Source: Escherichia phage vB_EcoM_KAW3E185. From it: a DNA stretch of 64,000 nt. The position numbers were made by a program, and so were the translations under genes. The notes under the pieces are model-generated. The model made no database searches, had not been told where the DNA came from, and saw only the letters and a list, made by a program, of their open reading frames with translations. Positions 4,838 through 61,358 of the stretch are shown piece after piece (the stretch's first letter is position 1; each line of letters begins with the position of its first letter). The DNA lies in sequence record MK373782.1; one strand, written 5' to 3'.

Positions 4838-4956
4838 AAATCACCATTATAAATAATAATATCAAAATAATTAGCAGAGACTCTGTCTCTGACCGGATGT
4901 TTAATTTGAATAGATAGAACCTAGATTCATTATACCATCAAAAATTGTAAAGCATA

Positions 4957-10816: not shown

Positions 10817-10841
10817 ATTATACATAGGTCGCCTTGAAGCA
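10817..10841 (-). promoter_or_regulatory. Middle (MotA-dependent) promoter of uvsY
   Basis: Minus strand reads TGCTTCA (MotA box) - 12 nt - TATAAT, with TG immediately 5' of the hexamer. Confidence 0.55.
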
Positions 10842-20669: not shown

Positions 20670-20693
20670 TGCCAAAAAGAGCCCGAAGGCTCT
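20670..20693 (-). terminator. Terminator hairpin between ligase operon and alt
   Basis: Minus strand: agagcc-UUCG-ggcucu followed by UUUU. Confidence 0.5.
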
Positions 20694-20881
20694 TAATCCA
20701 CAATCGGAAGCAAAGTACGATAAACTTCAAAATTAGAGCCTTTTTCGTACTTATCGAAATTGTCCATAAAAATATGATAGGAATCGTTATTAGGAAAATC
20801 TAATATAATCTGAGAGCAAGAGGTGGAAACATCTCCACCATCCTTCTTAGCTACAATAACTGTTTCTAAATAAGCTTTCAT
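20693..20881 (-). CDS. Hypothetical protein, translationally coupled to ligase (TAATG)
   Basis: 62-aa ORF from ATG overlapping the ligase stop codon. Confidence 0.45.
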   Translation of the reverse strand: MKAYLETVIVAKKDGGDVSTSCSQIILDFPNNDSYHIFMDNFDKYEKGSNFEVYRTLLPIVD

Positions 20882-22374
20882 TATAAACCTGTCTGGGACC
20901 ACGGTCCAAATACGTCTTCAAACGAATCCGCTTCTGTTTTATCAAAACGGAACCCTTTAATAATTGGGAGGAAAATACCTACAGTGCCTTCACGTCCTTT
21001 AGAATGAACCCAACCATTGCATTCACAATCAGCAATACGTCCAATCAATTTACCTTCACGAGCTTCGGTCATTAATCGTTCACGGTCCAAATCATGTCGC
21101 TCATCTAAAGGAATAAGAACCTTTACACCATCAACTGTTTTATGAGTTGTATCTTTAAACCCTGAACCACAATCGGTTGTAATACGACGACAACGTGATA
21201 CGAGTTCGACACCACCTAATTTGTTAGGGTCTTTAGAGTGTTCATAGTATCCTACAACTTCTAAAGCGATATCAATAACTTCTTTAAACTTAATTAGGTT
21301 CTTAGAGCGTTTGTTTTCCCAATATGAATCACGGTTTTTAAGGATAATACCTTCAAGACCTTGGTCAACATATTTTTTATAAACCACTTTAGCTTCGTCA
21401 AGATTACGAACTAACTGATTTTCAATTGGCTCAATTCGTTTAAAGCCTTCAGCCATATTTTCAAGAGCAGCAAAACGAACATCGTATTTCTGACCTTTAA
21501 TTTTGCCATCAGAATAGACTTCATCTAAAGGAACATAGTCCCAGGCTTGAAGAACCATACCTTCAGCTTCTTTAGGAGAAATAGTCCCTTGAAGAGATTT
21601 ATTTGCTAAACCGTTTGAAGTGCTACGGTCCGCAACTTGTACTTCTTCGGATTCTTCATTATCACCAAATAAGAACGACAGGTCATTTCCTGAGCTCACA
21701 GCCTTTTTAATATCAAATGAATGGTAAACTAATTCACCGTCGATTAAAACCCCATTAGGGTGTCTTTCACGAGCTTCTTTAGTCATTTCCATTAGTTCAT
21801 CCGCTAATAGAGTAAGACCATGATATTCGTTGCCGGCACGAGAAAAGAATTGAACACCATCATCGCGAACTTCAGCGAAACAACGAGCACCATCTGCTTT
21901 TAATTGGGCAAATGCGGGCCATTTAATATTTTTAGTAATCAATTTCTCGTCATATGCAGATGCTAACATCTGTGGTTGCAATTGAATAAGTCCAGGCCAC
22001 ACCTTATTCGCGATAGACACTGAAGCACCTACTTCAAGGTCGCGCATCATTACACGACGAAGGACTTCTACATCATCAGGTTTACCATCAGCGATATAAC
22101 CCATGAGCTCTTTAATTGCAGCATTACCAGTGAGTTTACGAGTGGCTAATGTGAACTCAATAAAATCCAACATGTCATCTAATTCAAGAAGACCATACGC
22201 TTGAGACCTTTCACCTGGTCCTGGCCATTTCTTAATATAATACTGGATACCACGTGCATATGTTAAACGATACACACGTTCAAGTAATTTGTTGTCCTTA
22301 TTTTTCTTAAGGATTTCCTGTTTTGTTTTAGTAGAACCGATCGCAGCTATTTGGTTTAAAATATCTAAAATCAT
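20881..22374 (-). CDS. 30: ATP-dependent DNA ligase gp30
   Basis: 497 aa, strong identity to T4 DNA ligase (MILDILNQIAAIGSTKTKQEIL…, KADGAR adenylation motif). Confidence 0.95.
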   Translation of the reverse strand: MILDILNQIAAIGSTKTKQEILKKNKDNKLLERVYRLTYARGIQYYIKKWPGPGERSQAYGLLELDDMLDFIEFTLATRKLTGNAAIKELMGYIADGKPDDVEVLRRVMMRDLEVGASVSIANKVWPGLIQLQPQMLASAYDEKLITKNIKWPAFAQLKADGARCFAEVRDDGVQFFSRAGNEYHGLTLLADELMEMTKEARERHPNGVLIDGELVYHSFDIKKAVSSGNDLSFLFGDNEESEEVQVADRSTSNGLANKSLQGTISPKEAEGMVLQAWDYVPLDEVYSDGKIKGQKYDVRFAALENMAEGFKRIEPIENQLVRNLDEAKVVYKKYVDQGLEGIILKNRDSYWENKRSKNLIKFKEVIDIALEVVGYYEHSKDPNKLGGVELVSRCRRITTDCGSGFKDTTHKTVDGVKVLIPLDERHDLDRERLMTEAREGKLIGRIADCECNGWVHSKGREGTVGIFLPIIKGFRFDKTEADSFEDVFGPWSQTGL

Positions 22375-30146: not shown

Positions 30147-31232
<1,086 letters not shown>

Positions 31233-32998: not shown

Positions 32999-34132
<1,134 letters not shown>

Positions 34133-35110: not shown

Positions 35111-36214
35111 AAAGGTACCGTTATGTTCGATTGAGCTCGCTAATTCTCAACCCGTTCTCTTATGAACTGCTACATATTACTATGCAGACCAGACTATATC
35201 ACAATCCCAGAGGGATTCTCCCCATTTCGAGTCGCTTGACCCTACGTCCGAAGACTAGTCGTTGAACCTTGCTTTGCAATTGTCGCCGTGCCATCGTTTA
35301 TATGTTGATGGTGATAAATCTTTCTTATCACAATATGGACAATTCAATTGAATTCTATTTGGATTTAATTTACATCTGTCATTATGTTTTAGATAAAATC
35401 CAGGACCTTTACCAATGTGACCGCAGAAATCACATGTGATTTCTTTTTGTGCAGGATGGGTCCCGTTCTTAACCATTTCTAATGTTTTTGCTGATGTTCT
35501 TTTCTTATGGTCTTCTGACAAGAAATGATGTGAACCGTCATTTACCCGTTTTGATTGAGTTTCTGACTGCATTTTACCACCGCAAAATACATGAGTACCT
35601 TCTTTTATAGCTGCAATATTGCGTTCTTTAACTTTTGCAATATGCTCAGCTTGTTGAAAATTATGTATACCTAATGCAACTCTATTTAAATTAGATTTAC
35701 GCTGTATTTCACCGTCTAAAAGATGAAATGTACCATTTTCTATCTTAGATTTAATAGAGGCAATATTTTTAGCTCGTACTTCAGGGATATTAAAAATCTG
35801 GATTTCTCTAGATTTTGCGGCTTTAGAAGCTAATTCAGAAATTTCTTCAGGAGAATATTTCATTCTAAGCTTTATAGCATGACAAGCCTGGTAATCTTTT
35901 TGAGCTAAATGTATATCATAATGTTCCTGTATAGAAAGGCACATCAAATTATCTAAATCATTATTTTCACGGTTACCGTCTTTATGATGGATTTCGTATG
36001 TTCTTCCATCAGAATCTTTAGGTATAGGTCCGTTAGCATCTATCCAAATTTTTCTATAGTTCAATTGTGCATCCTCTTAAAAGTATAATCATATTTATAT
36101 TATACTAATTAAAGGTGCAAGCAAAACCTTGGCTGCTAGTTTTCCTATAAAGGACTTTCCAGCAATTAAAGGAGTTTTCGATAAACGTTACCGTTTAAAG
36201 GCGCATTTTACGCA
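35111..36214 (-). mobile_element. Group I self-splicing intron in nrdB with embedded HNH endonuclease ORF (boundaries ±30 nt)
   Basis: About 1.1 kb interrupts the NrdB reading frame between …RFYVSFA and …MEGNAK; contains a free-standing HNH ORF. Confidence 0.6.
35255..36064 (-). CDS. Intron-encoded HNH homing endonuclease (I-TevIII-like, intact)
   Basis: 269 aa with HNH motif YEIHHKDGNRENN and C-terminal Cys-rich zinc finger. Confidence 0.8.
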   Translation of the reverse strand: MNYRKIWIDANGPIPKDSDGRTYEIHHKDGNRENNDLDNLMCLSIQEHYDIHLAQKDYQACHAIKLRMKYSPEEISELASKAAKSREIQIFNIPEVRAKNIASIKSKIENGTFHLLDGEIQRKSNLNRVALGIHNFQQAEHIAKVKERNIAAIKEGTHVFCGGKMQSETQSKRVNDGSHHFLSEDHKKRTSAKTLEMVKNGTHPAQKEITCDFCGHIGKGPGFYLKHNDRCKLNPNRIQLNCPYCDKKDLSPSTYKRWHGDNCKARFND

Positions 36215-46174: not shown

Positions 46175-49100
46175 ATGGCCGACATCAAACGTAAGTTCAG
46201 AGCCGAAGACGGTCTGGACGCCGGTGGCGACAAGATTGTTAACGTAGCATTAGCCGACCGTACAGTAGGTACTGATGGCGTAAACGTTGACTTCCTGGTA
46301 CAAGAAAACACCGTTCAAGTATATGATTCTACGCGTGGATATAACAAAGGATTTGTTGTTCTTTATGACAACCGTTTATATCAAGCAATAAATGATATCG
46401 TGTCTCCTTCCGGGGCATTTAACCTTTTACAATGGCGTGCAGTTCGTACCGATGCACAATGGATAACTGTCGCTTCTGGGACTTATCAACTTTCTTCAGG
46501 TGAATCTATTTCGGTTAACACTGGTGCCGGCAATGATATGGTTTTCACGTTGCCGAATACGCCGGTTGATGGCGATACTGTTGTTTTGGCTGATATTGGC
46601 GGAAGAACCGGAACAGTTAAAGTACAGATTAACGCGTCTGTGCAGAGTATTTTAAACTTTAGAGGTGAACAAGTTCGTACAGTTTTAATGACGCGTCCGC
46701 GTTCACAACTATTGTTTGTGTTTAGTAATCGTTTGTGGCAGATGTATATTATCGATTATGGTAAAGAATCAATCACTGTTACACCTGCGACACCATATCA
46801 AGCACAAGCAAATGATTTTATCGTTCGTCGTTTTACTAGTGCAGCACCAATCAACATTACACTTCCACGTAATGCCAACAATGGTGATATAATCCACCTA
46901 GTTGATTTAGATAAATTAAACCCACTGTATCATACAATTGTTAAAACATTTGATGATACAACGTCTATTGGTGAAGTCGGGACTCATATTGCCGAAGGCA
47001 GAAATGACTCTGACGCGTTTTTTGTTTTTGATGCTGCGAATAGTTTATGGCGTATATGGGAAGGCGACCAGAAATCGCGTCTTCGTATTATCCGTGCGGA
47101 TTCAAACATTCGTCCAAATGAAGAAGTTCTTATTTTTGGCACAAATAACGCTACAGCCGGAACTATTAATCTTACGCTGCCTACCGGAATTTTGAGTGGT
47201 GACACTGTTAAAATTTCAATGAACTACATGCGTAAAGGCCAAACAGTAAAAATTAAAGCTGCCGAAGGTGATACAATTGCTTCTTCTGTTGCATTGCTTC
47301 AGTTCCCTAAACGTTCTGAATATCCACCTGATGCTCAATGGGTCTCTGTTACTGAACTAGAATTCAATGGCACTACTTCATATGTTCCTGTATTAGAATT
47401 AGCGTATATCGAAGACACCGTTGCTGGTACACGTTATTGGGTTGTGCAACAGAATGTCCCTACGGTAGAACGTGTTGATGCTGGATCTGATGCTACACGA
47501 GCTCGTTTAGGTGTTATTGCTCTTGCTACTCAAGCGCAAGCAAATGTTGATTTAGAGAATACTCCAGCTAAAGAAGTGGCTATTACTCCTGAAACGTTGG
47601 CAAATCGTACAGCAACTGAAGCTCGACGTGGTATCGCTAAAATTGCTACAACAGCACAAGTTAATCAGAATTCCACAGCATCATTTGTGGACGATACTAT
47701 TGTTACGCCTAAAAAACTAAATGAGCGTACAGCAACTGAAACTCGTCGCGGTCTTGCTGAAATTGCTACTCAGGCCGAAACCGATGCTGGTCTTGATGAC
47801 ACAACGATTATTACACCTAAGAAATTGCAGGCACGTCAGGGTTCTGAAACACTATCTGGTATAGTTAAATATGTATCAACTACTTCTGCTACTCCTGCTG
47901 AAACTCGTGGGGCCGCAGGCACTAACATTTATAATAAAACCGTAAATAATTTAACTATTTCTCCTAAAGCCCTTGACCAATATAAAGCAACTTATGCTCA
48001 ACAAGGTGCAGTAATTTTAGCTGTTGATAGTGAAGTAATTGCTGGTCAATCCCAAGCAGGTTATTCTCACGCTGTAGTAACTCCTGAAACACTACATAAG
48101 AAAACTTCTACTGATGGACGTATTGGTTTAATTGAAATTGCTACGCAAGCAGAAACTAATGCTGGGACTGATTATACACGTGCAGTAACGCCTAAGACGT
48201 TAAATGATAGGAGAGCGACGGAAGGATTATCCGGCATAGCCGAACTTGCTACGCAAGTCGAATTTGATACTGGAACTGATGATACTCGTATCTCGACTCC
48301 ACTGAAAATTAAAACTCATTTTGATTCTTCTGACCGTACCAGTGTTAATTCTGATTCCGGACTTATTGAAGAAGGAACCTTGTGGAACCATTATACTCTT
48401 GATATTTCTAAAGCAAATGAAACACAACGTGGTACACTTCGCGTAGCGACCCAGGCAGAATCTAATGCAGGAACTTTAGATGATGTTCTTATTACTCCTA
48501 AAAAGCTTTTAGGGACTAAGTCCACTGAAACGTCTGAAGGCGTAATTAAGGTTGCTACTCAGGCTGAAACTGTAACAGGAACTTCTGCTAATACTGCTGT
48601 ATCTCCTAAGAATTTAAAATGGATTGTCCAGAACGAACCAACATGGGCTGCTACTACAGCAATTCGCGGATTCGTTAAAACTTCATCCGGTTCTATTACA
48701 TTCGTTGGTAATGATACAGTTGGTTCAACACAACCTTTAGAATCATATGAAAAAAATAGCTATGCTATATCTCCATATGAATTAAACCGTGTACTTGCTA
48801 ACTATTTGCCATTGAAAGCTAAAGCCGTAGATAGTAATTTATTAGATGGCCTAGATTCATCTCAGTTCATTCGTAGGGATATTGCACAGACGGTTAATGG
48901 TTCACTAACCTTAACCCAACAAACGAATCTGAGTGCCCCTCTTGTATCATCTAGTACTGCTACGTTTGGTGGTTCAGTTTCGGCAAATAGTACATTAAGT
49001 ATTTCTAATACTGGAACGGCAACTCGTCTGATTTTTGAGAAAGGACCTCAAACTGGAACTAACCCAGCACAGACGATGACTATCAGAGTTTGGGGAAATC

Positions 49101-59125: not shown

Positions 59126-59242
59126 TGTTTTGTGAGAAAAATGCACAAAAAGGAGCCGAAGCTCCCTAATCATGTTTGTCCAACCAATACAGCCAAATCA
59201 CTAGTGCAGCTATTGCACCGAGAAATCCTAAGGCTAGGGCAC

Positions 59243-60568
59243 TCAAAGTGCCTCCAAGTCTTTAGTGTACTCTGTCACAACATCAGTAGACTTCCAATAC
59301 TCATTTTCTTCTTTCTTAGCTTTAGCTTCTTCTGCTAGTTTACGTGCTTCATCGGAAGTGATATGGAAGATGTTAAGACCTACCAGTTTATCGACATGTT
59401 CTTTATACATTTCGATTTGTGCTAGCTCTTCAGTCAAAGCTTTACGAGTCTTGCCTTGAATCACAATTTCGCCACTGATAACTTTTTTGATGAAGTGTGC
59501 CTTAGCAAAAGCAAGTTTAAATGCTTTTTCAGATTCAATGATTTTGTTGTCAATACGTTTCTGAACGTAAGTCTTACGGACTTCAACAAAATCTTTGATT
59601 AAGTCCACTACGTTATCGTAGACCGCTAATTTACCCTTTTCATTAATCACTGTGATGTTTTGTGAACGACGTTCGATGAGACTAAAATCTTTCATGATTT
59701 TTTCATGACGTAGCTCTTCATCATCAGGAAGCGAGTACTCTTTACGGAACTTCACCTTAAACCCAAAGCCGTGTTCACCACAATCATCTTCCCATGAGAT
59801 TAGACCTTTGTCTTCCAACGGGTCAAGAACCTTACTCACGTACGTTTCACGGTCGAATTTATATGGGATTTCAGTTATCTGCATTTGAGTGCGAGATGTG
59901 AACTTATATGTTCCGTGAATCTCATAACGCCCATCAACTTCATGCACTTCACCGCGGAATTCCGGGAATTCAACTTTTGGCTTAGTGACATTTTTACCTT
60001 GAAGAGCTTGTAATACAGCCTTTTTGACTGATTTGAAACTATGAGGCAGAATATTTGTTGCGTAACCGGTTGCAATACCGGAGACGCCGTTCAAAAGAAC
60101 TGTCGGAATAATAGGAAGATAGAATTTTGGTGGAACGTGTTCTTTATCTTCATGAGCTGGAGCATATTCGGTATCTTTATAGACATTATAGAAATTTTTG
60201 CTTACACGAGCAAAAATATAACGAGATGCTGCAGCTTTTTGGACTGTTCGAGAACCAAAGTTGCCTTGGCCATCTAACAGTGGATAGTTGTTGTTCCATG
60301 TGTTAGCCATCAATGCACCTGCATCTTGTGCAGAAGATTCACCATGGTGATAACCTAAATCTGCAACACCGCCTGCAATTGACGCAAGTTTATGAAATTT
60401 TTCTTTATTACCACGAGCCAAATCTAACGCACGATGAACCACAAAACGTTGAACCGGCTTAAATCCATCAATCATGTTTGGGATTGCACGGTTTTCAACG
60501 GTGTACATCGCATATGCTAAGGCTTCGTTATCAATAATACTTTTTAGATTACGAGAATTCAATTGCAT
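59243..60568 (-). CDS. 52: DNA topoisomerase II medium subunit gp52
   Basis: 441 aa. Confidence 0.95.
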   Translation of the reverse strand: MQLNSRNLKSIIDNEALAYAMYTVENRAIPNMIDGFKPVQRFVVHRALDLARGNKEKFHKLASIAGGVADLGYHHGESSAQDAGALMANTWNNNYPLLDGQGNFGSRTVQKAAASRYIFARVSKNFYNVYKDTEYAPAHEDKEHVPPKFYLPIIPTVLLNGVSGIATGYATNILPHSFKSVKKAVLQALQGKNVTKPKVEFPEFRGEVHEVDGRYEIHGTYKFTSRTQMQITEIPYKFDRETYVSKVLDPLEDKGLISWEDDCGEHGFGFKVKFRKEYSLPDDEELRHEKIMKDFSLIERRSQNITVINEKGKLAVYDNVVDLIKDFVEVRKTYVQKRIDNKIIESEKAFKLAFAKAHFIKKVISGEIVIQGKTRKALTEELAQIEMYKEHVDKLVGLNIFHITSDEARKLAEEAKAKKEENEYWKSTDVVTEYTKDLEAL

Positions 60569-60572
60569 ATTT

Positions 60573-60713
60573 TCACCATATTAATGAACGAATATCCATT
60601 ATAACATCTGAAATGAAAAGCACTACTTGGATTAGTCCAAACATCACACCGTAGTACAGAACCGTAAGCAACAACAAGAGCCCGAAGGCTCCTGCTAAGA
60701 TTTTCTTAATCAT
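60573..60713 (-). CDS. Small hydrophobic membrane peptide (46 aa)
   Basis: Hand-translated MIKKILAGAFGLLLLLTVLYYGVMFGLIQVVLFISDVIMDIRSLIW; ATG overlaps the stop of the upstream micro-ORF (TAATG). Confidence 0.35.
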   Translation of the reverse strand: MIKKILAGAFGLLLLLTVLYYGVMFGLIQVVLFISDVIMDIRSLIW

Positions 60714-60859
60714 TACTCGCCTTTTAACACGTTAAAAAGAGCTAAGACCGCTAAGGTGCCTTGTGATACGGCCTGTTGAAATACTGTTGTTTCGCCTGTA
60801 ACTAAAGTGTTAACGAATAAAAACGACCAACACAGCAATGCAATAATCCATGCTACCAT
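60713..60859 (-). CDS. Small membrane protein (48 aa), possibly ac-like
   Basis: Hand-translated MVAWIIALLCWSFLFVNTLVTGETTVFQQAVSQGTLAVLALFNVLKGE; sits where the small ac membrane protein is expected. Confidence 0.4.
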   Translation of the reverse strand: MVAWIIALLCWSFLFVNTLVTGETTVFQQAVSQGTLAVLALFNVLKGE

Positions 60860-60911
60860 TTTAATTACCTCAAAAATAAATTAAAGGCCCAACTTAATAG
60901 GCCCGTATAAA

Positions 60912-61358
60912 TTAGTAACTCTGCAGAATGAATTTGAAATTATCAGCCAGAAGACGGTTCATTTCAGTGAGTGTTTGATATTCTGATGTATGATTGCGAG
61001 TGAATGCCAGAGCCAATTGTCCTTTACCATAACCAGTGGTCAGTGGTTTCATGTTCTTAGCTGCAACAAAGATTACATCATATTCAATATTGTTAGTGCC
61101 CATGGTACGGGCTAGTTGTGAACGGCCTTGACGAATGTGAGAAAGAATTGCATCCAACCCTTGTTTAGAACGTTGACGTCCTACAAAGAATCGTGCTGCT
61201 ACTTGTCGCCAATCAGATGAACCTTTAACAAAGAAGTAAAAACCTTCACGAGAACGAAACTCTTTAGAAACTTCAGAACCGTATTCACCATTACGAACTA
61301 CTGCAACAACTTCACCGCCAACTGCCAGAAGGTCTTTACGAGTTAAATATTTGGACAT
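60912..61358 (-). CDS. ndd: Nucleoid disruption protein Ndd
   Basis: 148 aa; strong C-terminal identity to T4 Ndd (…[20 protein letters not shown]…[11 protein letters not shown]). Confidence 0.85.

Follow-up and report, generated by a model that had tools for sequence, protein, structure and literature searches.

The genes around gene 52 of phage T4 are arranged in the order ndd - stp - ac - 52.1 - 52 - motA.1 - motA. The ac gene was mapped some 60 years ago; for 52.1 we know of no reported function. Mutations in T4 ac confer resistance to acridines, E. coli cells expressing T4 Ac are sensitised to acriflavine and ampicillin, and the substitution G38R in T4 Ac leads to acriflavine resistance (bioRxiv 10.1101/2025.06.30.662393). 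Blocking of AcrAB-TolC by Ac is a hypothesis of the same preprint (bioRxiv 10.1101/2025.06.30.662393; cited in PMC13250531). The T4 Stp peptide, 26 aa long, inhibits type Ic restriction and triggers the PrrC anticodon nuclease (PMC3014915). In a multi-omics analysis of T4, the transcripts of ac, 52.1 and stp were early and mass spectrometry detected none of the three proteins (PMC9697503, supplementary file 4), a non-detection that is unsurprising because the peptides are so small and hydrophobic.

The window, which is the whole 64,000-nt stretch of Escherichia phage vB_EcoM_KAW3E185 DNA that was analysed, carries the corresponding locus on the minus strand in the order ndd, a 52-nt spacer, ac (48 aa), 52.1 (46 aa), 4 nt and gene 52. 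The region shares 99.4% identity with Shigella phage JK36 and 95% or more with some 150 further records, of which those examined belong to Mosigvirus, the RB69-like genus. A 701-nt query from the locus was covered to at least 80% in 151 of the 165 matching records. The features of the locus, in the order of transcription, are listed below.

60912..61358, minus strand: ndd, nucleoid disruption protein, 148 aa (Pfam Phage_T4_Ndd, E = 4.3e-89; ndd in the annotations of JK36 and RB69)
60885..60904, minus strand: terminator-like hairpin in the ndd-ac spacer, GGGCCU..GGGCCU with a U-rich tail (terminator scan; -11.1 kcal/mol)
60713..60859, minus strand: ac homologue, a small membrane protein of 48 aa with two predicted helices (phrog_2501, E = 3.2e-22)
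60573..60713, minus strand: 52.1 homologue, 46 aa, very hydrophobic, with one long predicted helix (Pfam DUF7396)
60672..60697, minus strand: RNA hairpin within 52.1 at about codons 6-14, with an 11-bp stem and a UUCG loop (-16.5 to -16.9 kcal/mol)
60598..60622, minus strand: MotA-type middle-promoter motif TGCTT-N14-TATAAT at about codons 31-39 of 52.1 (pattern search; annotation of phage SA79RD)
59243..60568, minus strand: gene 52, topoisomerase II medium subunit, 441 aa (ORF list; annotation of relatives)
about 59146..59166, minus strand: GGAGC-UUCG-GCUCC hairpin followed by U5, the canonical terminator closing the gene 52 unit (read from the sequence)

The two small ORFs are very probably (about 90%) the Mosigvirus orthologues of the T4 early genes ac and 52.1, in a lineage from which stp is absent. 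The sequence-only reading had placed them correctly on the minus strand, at 60713-60859 (48 aa) and 60573-60713 (46 aa) with a TAATG junction, and the hydrophobicity that it had noticed is borne out by GRAVY values of 1.19 and 1.70, respectively. Both ORFs are also more than chance occurrences, with matches to phrog_2501 (E = 3.2e-22) for ac and to DUF7396 (E = 4.5e-23) for 52.1. They are not unrecognised genes, being annotated as ac and 52.1 in RB69, T4 and dozens of Mosigvirus records. The T4 interval had been given as 52-ac-stp-ndd; the T4 map has 52 - 52.1 - ac - stp - ndd, and the interval as given therefore left out 52.1. Thus, the genes themselves and the absence of stp are already known, and what is mildly new is the selection for a hairpin within an ORF under purifying selection and the probable gene 52 promoter in the same ORF. 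The locus is also a case in which small-ORF cut-offs conceal real, conserved phage genes that are already present in curated annotations.

The stop codon of ndd occupies 60912-60914, leaving 52 nt between it and the ac ATG. Both small genes start with ATG; ac ends with TAA and 52.1 with TGA, and the two share base 60713 in GAG-TAATG-ATT. The 52.1 stop is followed by AAAT (4 nt) and then by the gene 52 ATG at 60568. A GAGG Shine-Dalgarno sequence lies 8 nt upstream of the ac start. The only Shine-Dalgarno candidate for 52.1 is a weak AAGG, which together with the overlapping junction makes the previously suggested translational coupling of the two genes plausible. In T4 the two genes overlap by 8 nt in ATGATTAA rather than by the 1 nt of TAATG. 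One ac variant has the stop TAA changed to CAA and encodes a 49-aa protein with a CAATGA overlap, keeping the coupling geometry.

The ac gene is annotated in RB69 (NP_861957, acridine resistance protein), T4 (NP_049877), JK36 and phage 55, and an intact copy is present in at least 217 phage records. Six of the nine variable ac sites within Mosigvirus fall at third codon positions, and the differences are mostly synonymous. The window Ac is 98% identical to RB69 Ac. Its identity to T4 Ac is 32% (BLASTP E = 2e-7), and it has 48 aa compared with the 51 aa of T4 Ac. The two nevertheless match the same profile, phrog_2501 (E = 3.2e-22 for the window Ac and 2.2e-25 for T4 Ac), and both are small two-helix membrane proteins encoded after ndd with a gene end overlapping the 52.1 start. 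The immediate upstream neighbour differs, being a non-coding hairpin spacer here and stp in T4. The AF2 model of the window Ac is a hairpin of two helices, residues 2-21 and 25-45 (pLDDT 78.7). The motif VFxQAxxQG is common to both proteins, and the critical T4 G38 within it aligns with the invariant G34. No model of the Pfam copy searched matched Ac, for which one database homologue carries a precomputed PF26944 match, and NCBIfam gave no match for Ac or 52.1. A deep protein search recovered four clusters for Ac and 12 for 52.1, indicating that neither family extends beyond the T4-type phages.

An acridine phenotype may be expected of Ac in this phage, but at 32% identity to T4 Ac it may not carry over. 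The gene could belong to the Ac sequence family and act on another membrane target without sensitising the cell to acridines, a reading that is rather unlikely. The low identity to T4 Ac speaks for it, as does the tendency of this position to swap small membrane-protein genes: in Dhaka-like and Gaprivervirus loci, the slot upstream of 52.1 is taken by phrog_9347, an unrelated small membrane protein, and both families are present in some loci. Against it stand the profile family common with T4 Ac, the conserved VFxQAxxQG including the Gly whose substitution inactivates the T4 protein, and the same predicted two-helix architecture (AF2; preprint bioRxiv 10.1101/2025.06.30.662393).

The alternation of Ac and phrog_9347 indicates that 52.1 is the constant partner and that the gene upstream of it is exchangeable. 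This exchange could guide work on the function of Ac and 52.1. In two IMG/VR Dhakavirus-like genomes (L014 and L015, at 964-1508 in both) the module is duplicated in tandem, in the order stp, a Mosigvirus-type Ac (49 aa, phrog_2501), a second stp, a 53-aa phrog_9347 protein and 52.1. The other Dhaka-like and Gaprivervirus loci have phrog_9347 alone in the slot.

The 52.1 gene is annotated in RB69 (NP_861956), T4 (NP_049876), JK36, phage 55 and many Mosigvirus genomes. Its product matches Pfam DUF7396 over the whole profile (residues 1-46 to profile positions 1-46) with 81.6 bits against a cut-off of 27, and also matches phrog_3595. A PDB sequence search with 52.1 gave no match. The AF2 model of gp52.1 is one continuous helix of residues 2-45 (pLDDT 96.7). 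The family is limited to Tequatrovirus, Mosigvirus, Dhakavirus-like and Gaprivervirus phages. Every full-length homologue recovered has 46 aa (724 phage records), so that the frame, which the sequence-only reading had proposed to check in close relatives, is intact across all four genera. The window protein is 72% identical to T4 gp52.1, and the two share the length of 46 aa, a 4-nt distance to the gene 52 ATG, a hairpin in the corresponding position and an embedded TGCTT...TATNAT motif. The differences lie in the -10 element, TATAAT in the window and TATTAT in T4, and in the sequence and register of the hairpins: one 11-bp UUCG hairpin here corresponds to two tandem hairpins in T4, with residues 7-18 differing accordingly.

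Among 15 distinct DNA sequences, the variable sites of 52.1 are distributed over the three codon positions as 16/12/35, and dN/dS between genera is 0.07-0.10 (Nei-Gojobori). The least conserved part is residues 7-18, which are encoded by the hairpin and have a dN of 0.51 compared with 0.07 for the rest. That 52.1 is untranslated and serves as a mere leader carrying a terminator and the gene 52 promoter is hardly credible in view of this pattern. Such a leader would agree with the strong hairpin and the promoter motif filling about one third of the 141-nt ORF, with the weak Shine-Dalgarno sequence and with the failure of mass spectrometry to find T4 gp52.1. It does not agree with the low dN/dS, with a variation at third positions two to three times that at first or second positions, or with a frame of exactly 46 aa across four genera, in which 695 of the 724 records cover at least 80%. 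Furthermore, in all lineages the 52.1 start and the upstream stop overlap despite changed junctions (TAATG, ATGATTAA and CAATGA), and conserved residues, e.g. YYGVMFGL, lie outside both nucleic-acid signals. By these measures of coding constraint, 52.1 is a real gene and not merely a leader, although part of the conservation of its 3' half could stem from the promoter and not from the protein.

The absence of stp is seen in the 52-nt spacer between ndd and ac, which contains no ORF, as had been noticed from the sequence. Next to ndd there is no ORF of ~26 aa that carries the 18 conserved N-terminal residues of Stp (phrog_6763; MSNFHNEHVMQ...). The spacer resembles T4 stp in location only, both having a hairpin between ndd and ac; it is 52 nt long compared with the 81-nt gene of T4. 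The hairpin of the spacer, at 60885..60904, is a predicted terminator in the SA79RD annotation. The spacer was also considered as a decayed stp, a candidate that was rejected because no sequence similarity to T4 stp is visible.

The proposal to look for a Stp homologue elsewhere was followed in the window and in the remaining ~108 kb of JK36, which is the closest complete genome, and no homologue was found: the best tblastn match had E = 0.37, and the best small ORF had a local score of 41 compared with a self-score of 143. In this search JK36 stands in for ~105 kb of the genome of this phage beyond the window, and a query of 26 aa has low power. Both of these features leave some room for a Stp-like function that is encoded elsewhere or is too diverged for recognition, and so does the retention of polynucleotide kinase (Pnk) and RNA ligase 1 (Rnl1), which in T4 repair PrrC damage. 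A hidden Stp is nevertheless very improbable, given the poor best matches and the strong conservation of Stp elsewhere, with identities between genera of 80% or more and a gene that always neighbours ndd. Without exception, stp of Tequatrovirus, Dhaka-like and Gaprivervirus phages follows ndd and precedes the membrane-protein slot, usually abutting ndd. This consistent position indicates that its absence here is lineage-specific, in agreement with the RB69 annotation, from which stp is missing. RB69-type genomes are known to lack stp, and this lack is a lineage trait of the RB69-like phages.

Several observations on Stp and its partners stand apart from this question. Stp is, to our knowledge, the sole known trigger of the PrrC nuclease. 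The Pnk and Rnl1 kept in the window (30149-31045 and 33002-34123, minus strand) are 74% and 67% identical to their T4 counterparts, respectively. The last eight codons of T4 stp form a C(UUCG)G hairpin, GGCGUC-UUCG-GACGCC (z = -3.0; L004, 5000-5045), just upstream of the ac ribosome-binding site, and thereby provide another example, within this region, of a micro-ORF that contains a hairpin. The C-terminal part of Stp is reportedly polymorphic and not required (PMC3014915). Siphoviruses unrelated to T4 encode near-identical versions of Stp (96% over 25 aa): Raoultella phage RP180 (Kagunavirus, NC_048181) carries one in an unannotated gap after the endolysin gene (L025, 1801-1875), and others are found in Escherichia phage Ro145clw and in Salmonella siphoviruses of 40-52 kb. 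As judged from these sequences, their distribution suggests horizontal spread of the anti-type-Ic-restriction peptide.

Within 52.1, a perfect palindrome is present as had been described, although it lies at 60678-60691 and not at 60680-60693, a displacement of 2 nt. The core GAGCC-CGAA-GGCTC (14 nt) extends on the mRNA to an 11-bp stem with a UUCG loop, a GC-rich stem-loop that folds with -16.5 to -16.9 kcal/mol (z = -2.6). The corresponding loop in RB69 is UUAG. The T4-type sequence at the same place forms GGGCUA-UUCAU-UAGCCC and a second hairpin (-18.7 kcal/mol, z = -3.4). Between Mosigvirus and the T4 type, the register of the hairpins is shifted by ~3.5 nt; a covariation test between the two types was therefore dropped in favour of synonymous resampling, in which the amino acids are fixed and the codons are redrawn from the phage's own codon usage, and pairs were counted within the T4 type only. 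A structure of equal stability was reached in 0 of 2000 resamples for the window, in 1 of 2000 for T4 and in at most 3 of 1000 for each of seven other lineages. Other 48-nt segments of ac and 52.1 showed no strong departure from their resamples, with a lowest fraction of 0.033.

In ten related T4-type sequences, helix 2 pairs in 100% of the cells and four of its seven pairs vary, including one C-G to U-A double change that also brings about A14I and V17I in some Tequatrovirus phages. The observed covariation score was reached in 15 of 500 shuffles, which with ten related sequences is modest support. These comparisons of codon choice and pairing indicate that the hairpin structure is selected alongside the protein. 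The earlier suggestion that the 46-aa ORF might instead be a terminator-bearing leader thus fails as an either/or, since selection on the coding sequence and selection on the hairpin hold together.

Whether the 52.1 hairpin acts as a terminator is evenly balanced on its sequence features. C(UUCG)G tetraloop hairpins and the intrinsic terminators of T-even phages were reportedly treated by Tuerk et al. in 1988. The 52.1 hairpin resembles these terminators in its GC-rich stem and UUCG loop and in having an identical copy in the genome that is a canonical terminator; it differs in lying inside a translated ORF and in its interrupted U-tract, UUGUUGUUGCUU. The 8 nt after the 5-bp core contain six Ts, and those after the full 11-bp stem only four. 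A simple terminator scan did not call the site, which together with the interrupted U-tract makes efficient termination doubtful. TransTermHP/WebGeSTer annotation in relatives (SA79RD) has the hairpin as a predicted terminator. An Rfam scan of 60300-61100 at E <= 1 gave no match, and a literature search for transcript 5'/3'-end maps of T4-type phages found none. The identical copy of the 14-mer is located at 20679-20692, where it directly follows the stop codon TAA that ends a 69-aa ORF (20693-20902, minus strand) and precedes TTTTT; by this context it is a canonical intergenic terminator. The terminator of the gene 52 unit, with its CTTCGG match at 59156-59161, is likewise annotated as a terminator in SA79RD. 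Two identical 14-mers (GAGCC-TTCG-GGCTC) in 64 kb are beyond chance expectation.

The hairpin could also have a role other than termination, either as a barrier to 3' exonuclease or RNase processing that stabilises the ndd-ac mRNA or as a tuner of the coupled initiation of 52.1. This is possible, if somewhat improbable. The broken U-tract and the missing scan call would be explained, as would the two tandem hairpins that T4-type phages have in place of one hairpin with a U-run, and the position of the hairpin ~17 nt downstream of the 52.1 AUG, which is fixed in all lineages. However, the identical copy with a U5 tail is a canonical intergenic terminator of the same genome, the programs used on relatives label the 52.1 hairpin as a terminator, and a promoter just downstream makes sense if upstream transcription is attenuated there.

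The promoter motif TGCTT-N14-TATAAT at 60598-60622 has the T4 middle-promoter pattern and lies ~30 nt upstream of the gene 52 ATG. The pattern TGCTT-N13-15-TATAAT has five matches in the window, all on the minus strand, which is the strand of the early and middle genes, compared with 0.34 expected. The synonymous sites of the GTG-CTT codons, which contain the MotA box, are invariant in the 15 distinct sequences, and SA79RD has an annotated middle promoter at the same site. It is thus probable, as far as pattern and conservation can tell, that 52.1 houses the middle promoter of gene 52. The four further matches, at 4929-4954, 10817-10841, 36099-36123 and 48390-48415 on the minus strand, are additional candidates for MotA-dependent promoters.

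In the preferred reading, in which the ORFs are ac and 52.1, the layout of the locus would be P(ndd)...ndd, hairpin, ac and the 5' part of 52.1, hairpin, P(middle), gene 52 and terminator. The ac and 52.1 genes would be transcribed by read-through from the ndd promoter, and their translation would be coupled through the TAATG junction, in which the ac stop codon and the 52.1 start overlap. Ac would form a two-helix membrane hairpin and gp52.1 a single long hydrophobic helix. As 52.1 is always co-encoded and coupled with an upstream small membrane protein, we infer that the two proteins act jointly in the inner membrane. The hairpin at about codons 6-14 would be a partial, translation-sensitive intrinsic terminator or a 3'-end stabiliser that ends the early ndd-ac transcript, and the MotA/AsiA-type middle promoter at about codons 31-39, with a presumed dependence on MotA, would give gene 52 its own transcription start. 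With these elements, 52.1 is a clean example of overlapping constraints from protein, RNA structure and promoter.

A more ambitious reading gives the 141-nt 52.1 a triple role as a conserved membrane peptide, a hairpin preserved through codon choice and the site of the gene 52 promoter, with the hairpin working as a translation-sensitive attenuator. Ribosomes on ac-52.1 that follow closely behind the RNA polymerase would prevent the hairpin from forming, and early transcription would enter gene 52; otherwise gene 52 would rely on the MotA promoter. Besides codon choice, the hairpin would be maintained by compensatory changes that affect the protein sequence, such as A14I/V17I in some Tequatrovirus phages. 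This reading is speculative and on the whole unlikely, but, if true, the attenuator would be a previously undescribed control point for the expression of the T4-type topoisomerase.

Two further observations concern the surroundings of the locus and the other end of the window. A 26-aa hydrophobic ORF, MSALALGFLGAIAALVIWLYWLDKHD, lies on the minus strand at 59166-59246, with a TTG start that overlaps the gene 52 stop. It sits at the position of motA.1 in T4 and has no annotation in JK36 or RB69. It is open in five relatives, with about four synonymous and three non-synonymous differences that do not settle its coding status. At positions 1-1500, the window begins within the major capsid protein gene. 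Several close relatives have a homing endonuclease annotated beside or within the capsid gene, and the capsid gene of JK36 is annotated as two overlapping CDSs.
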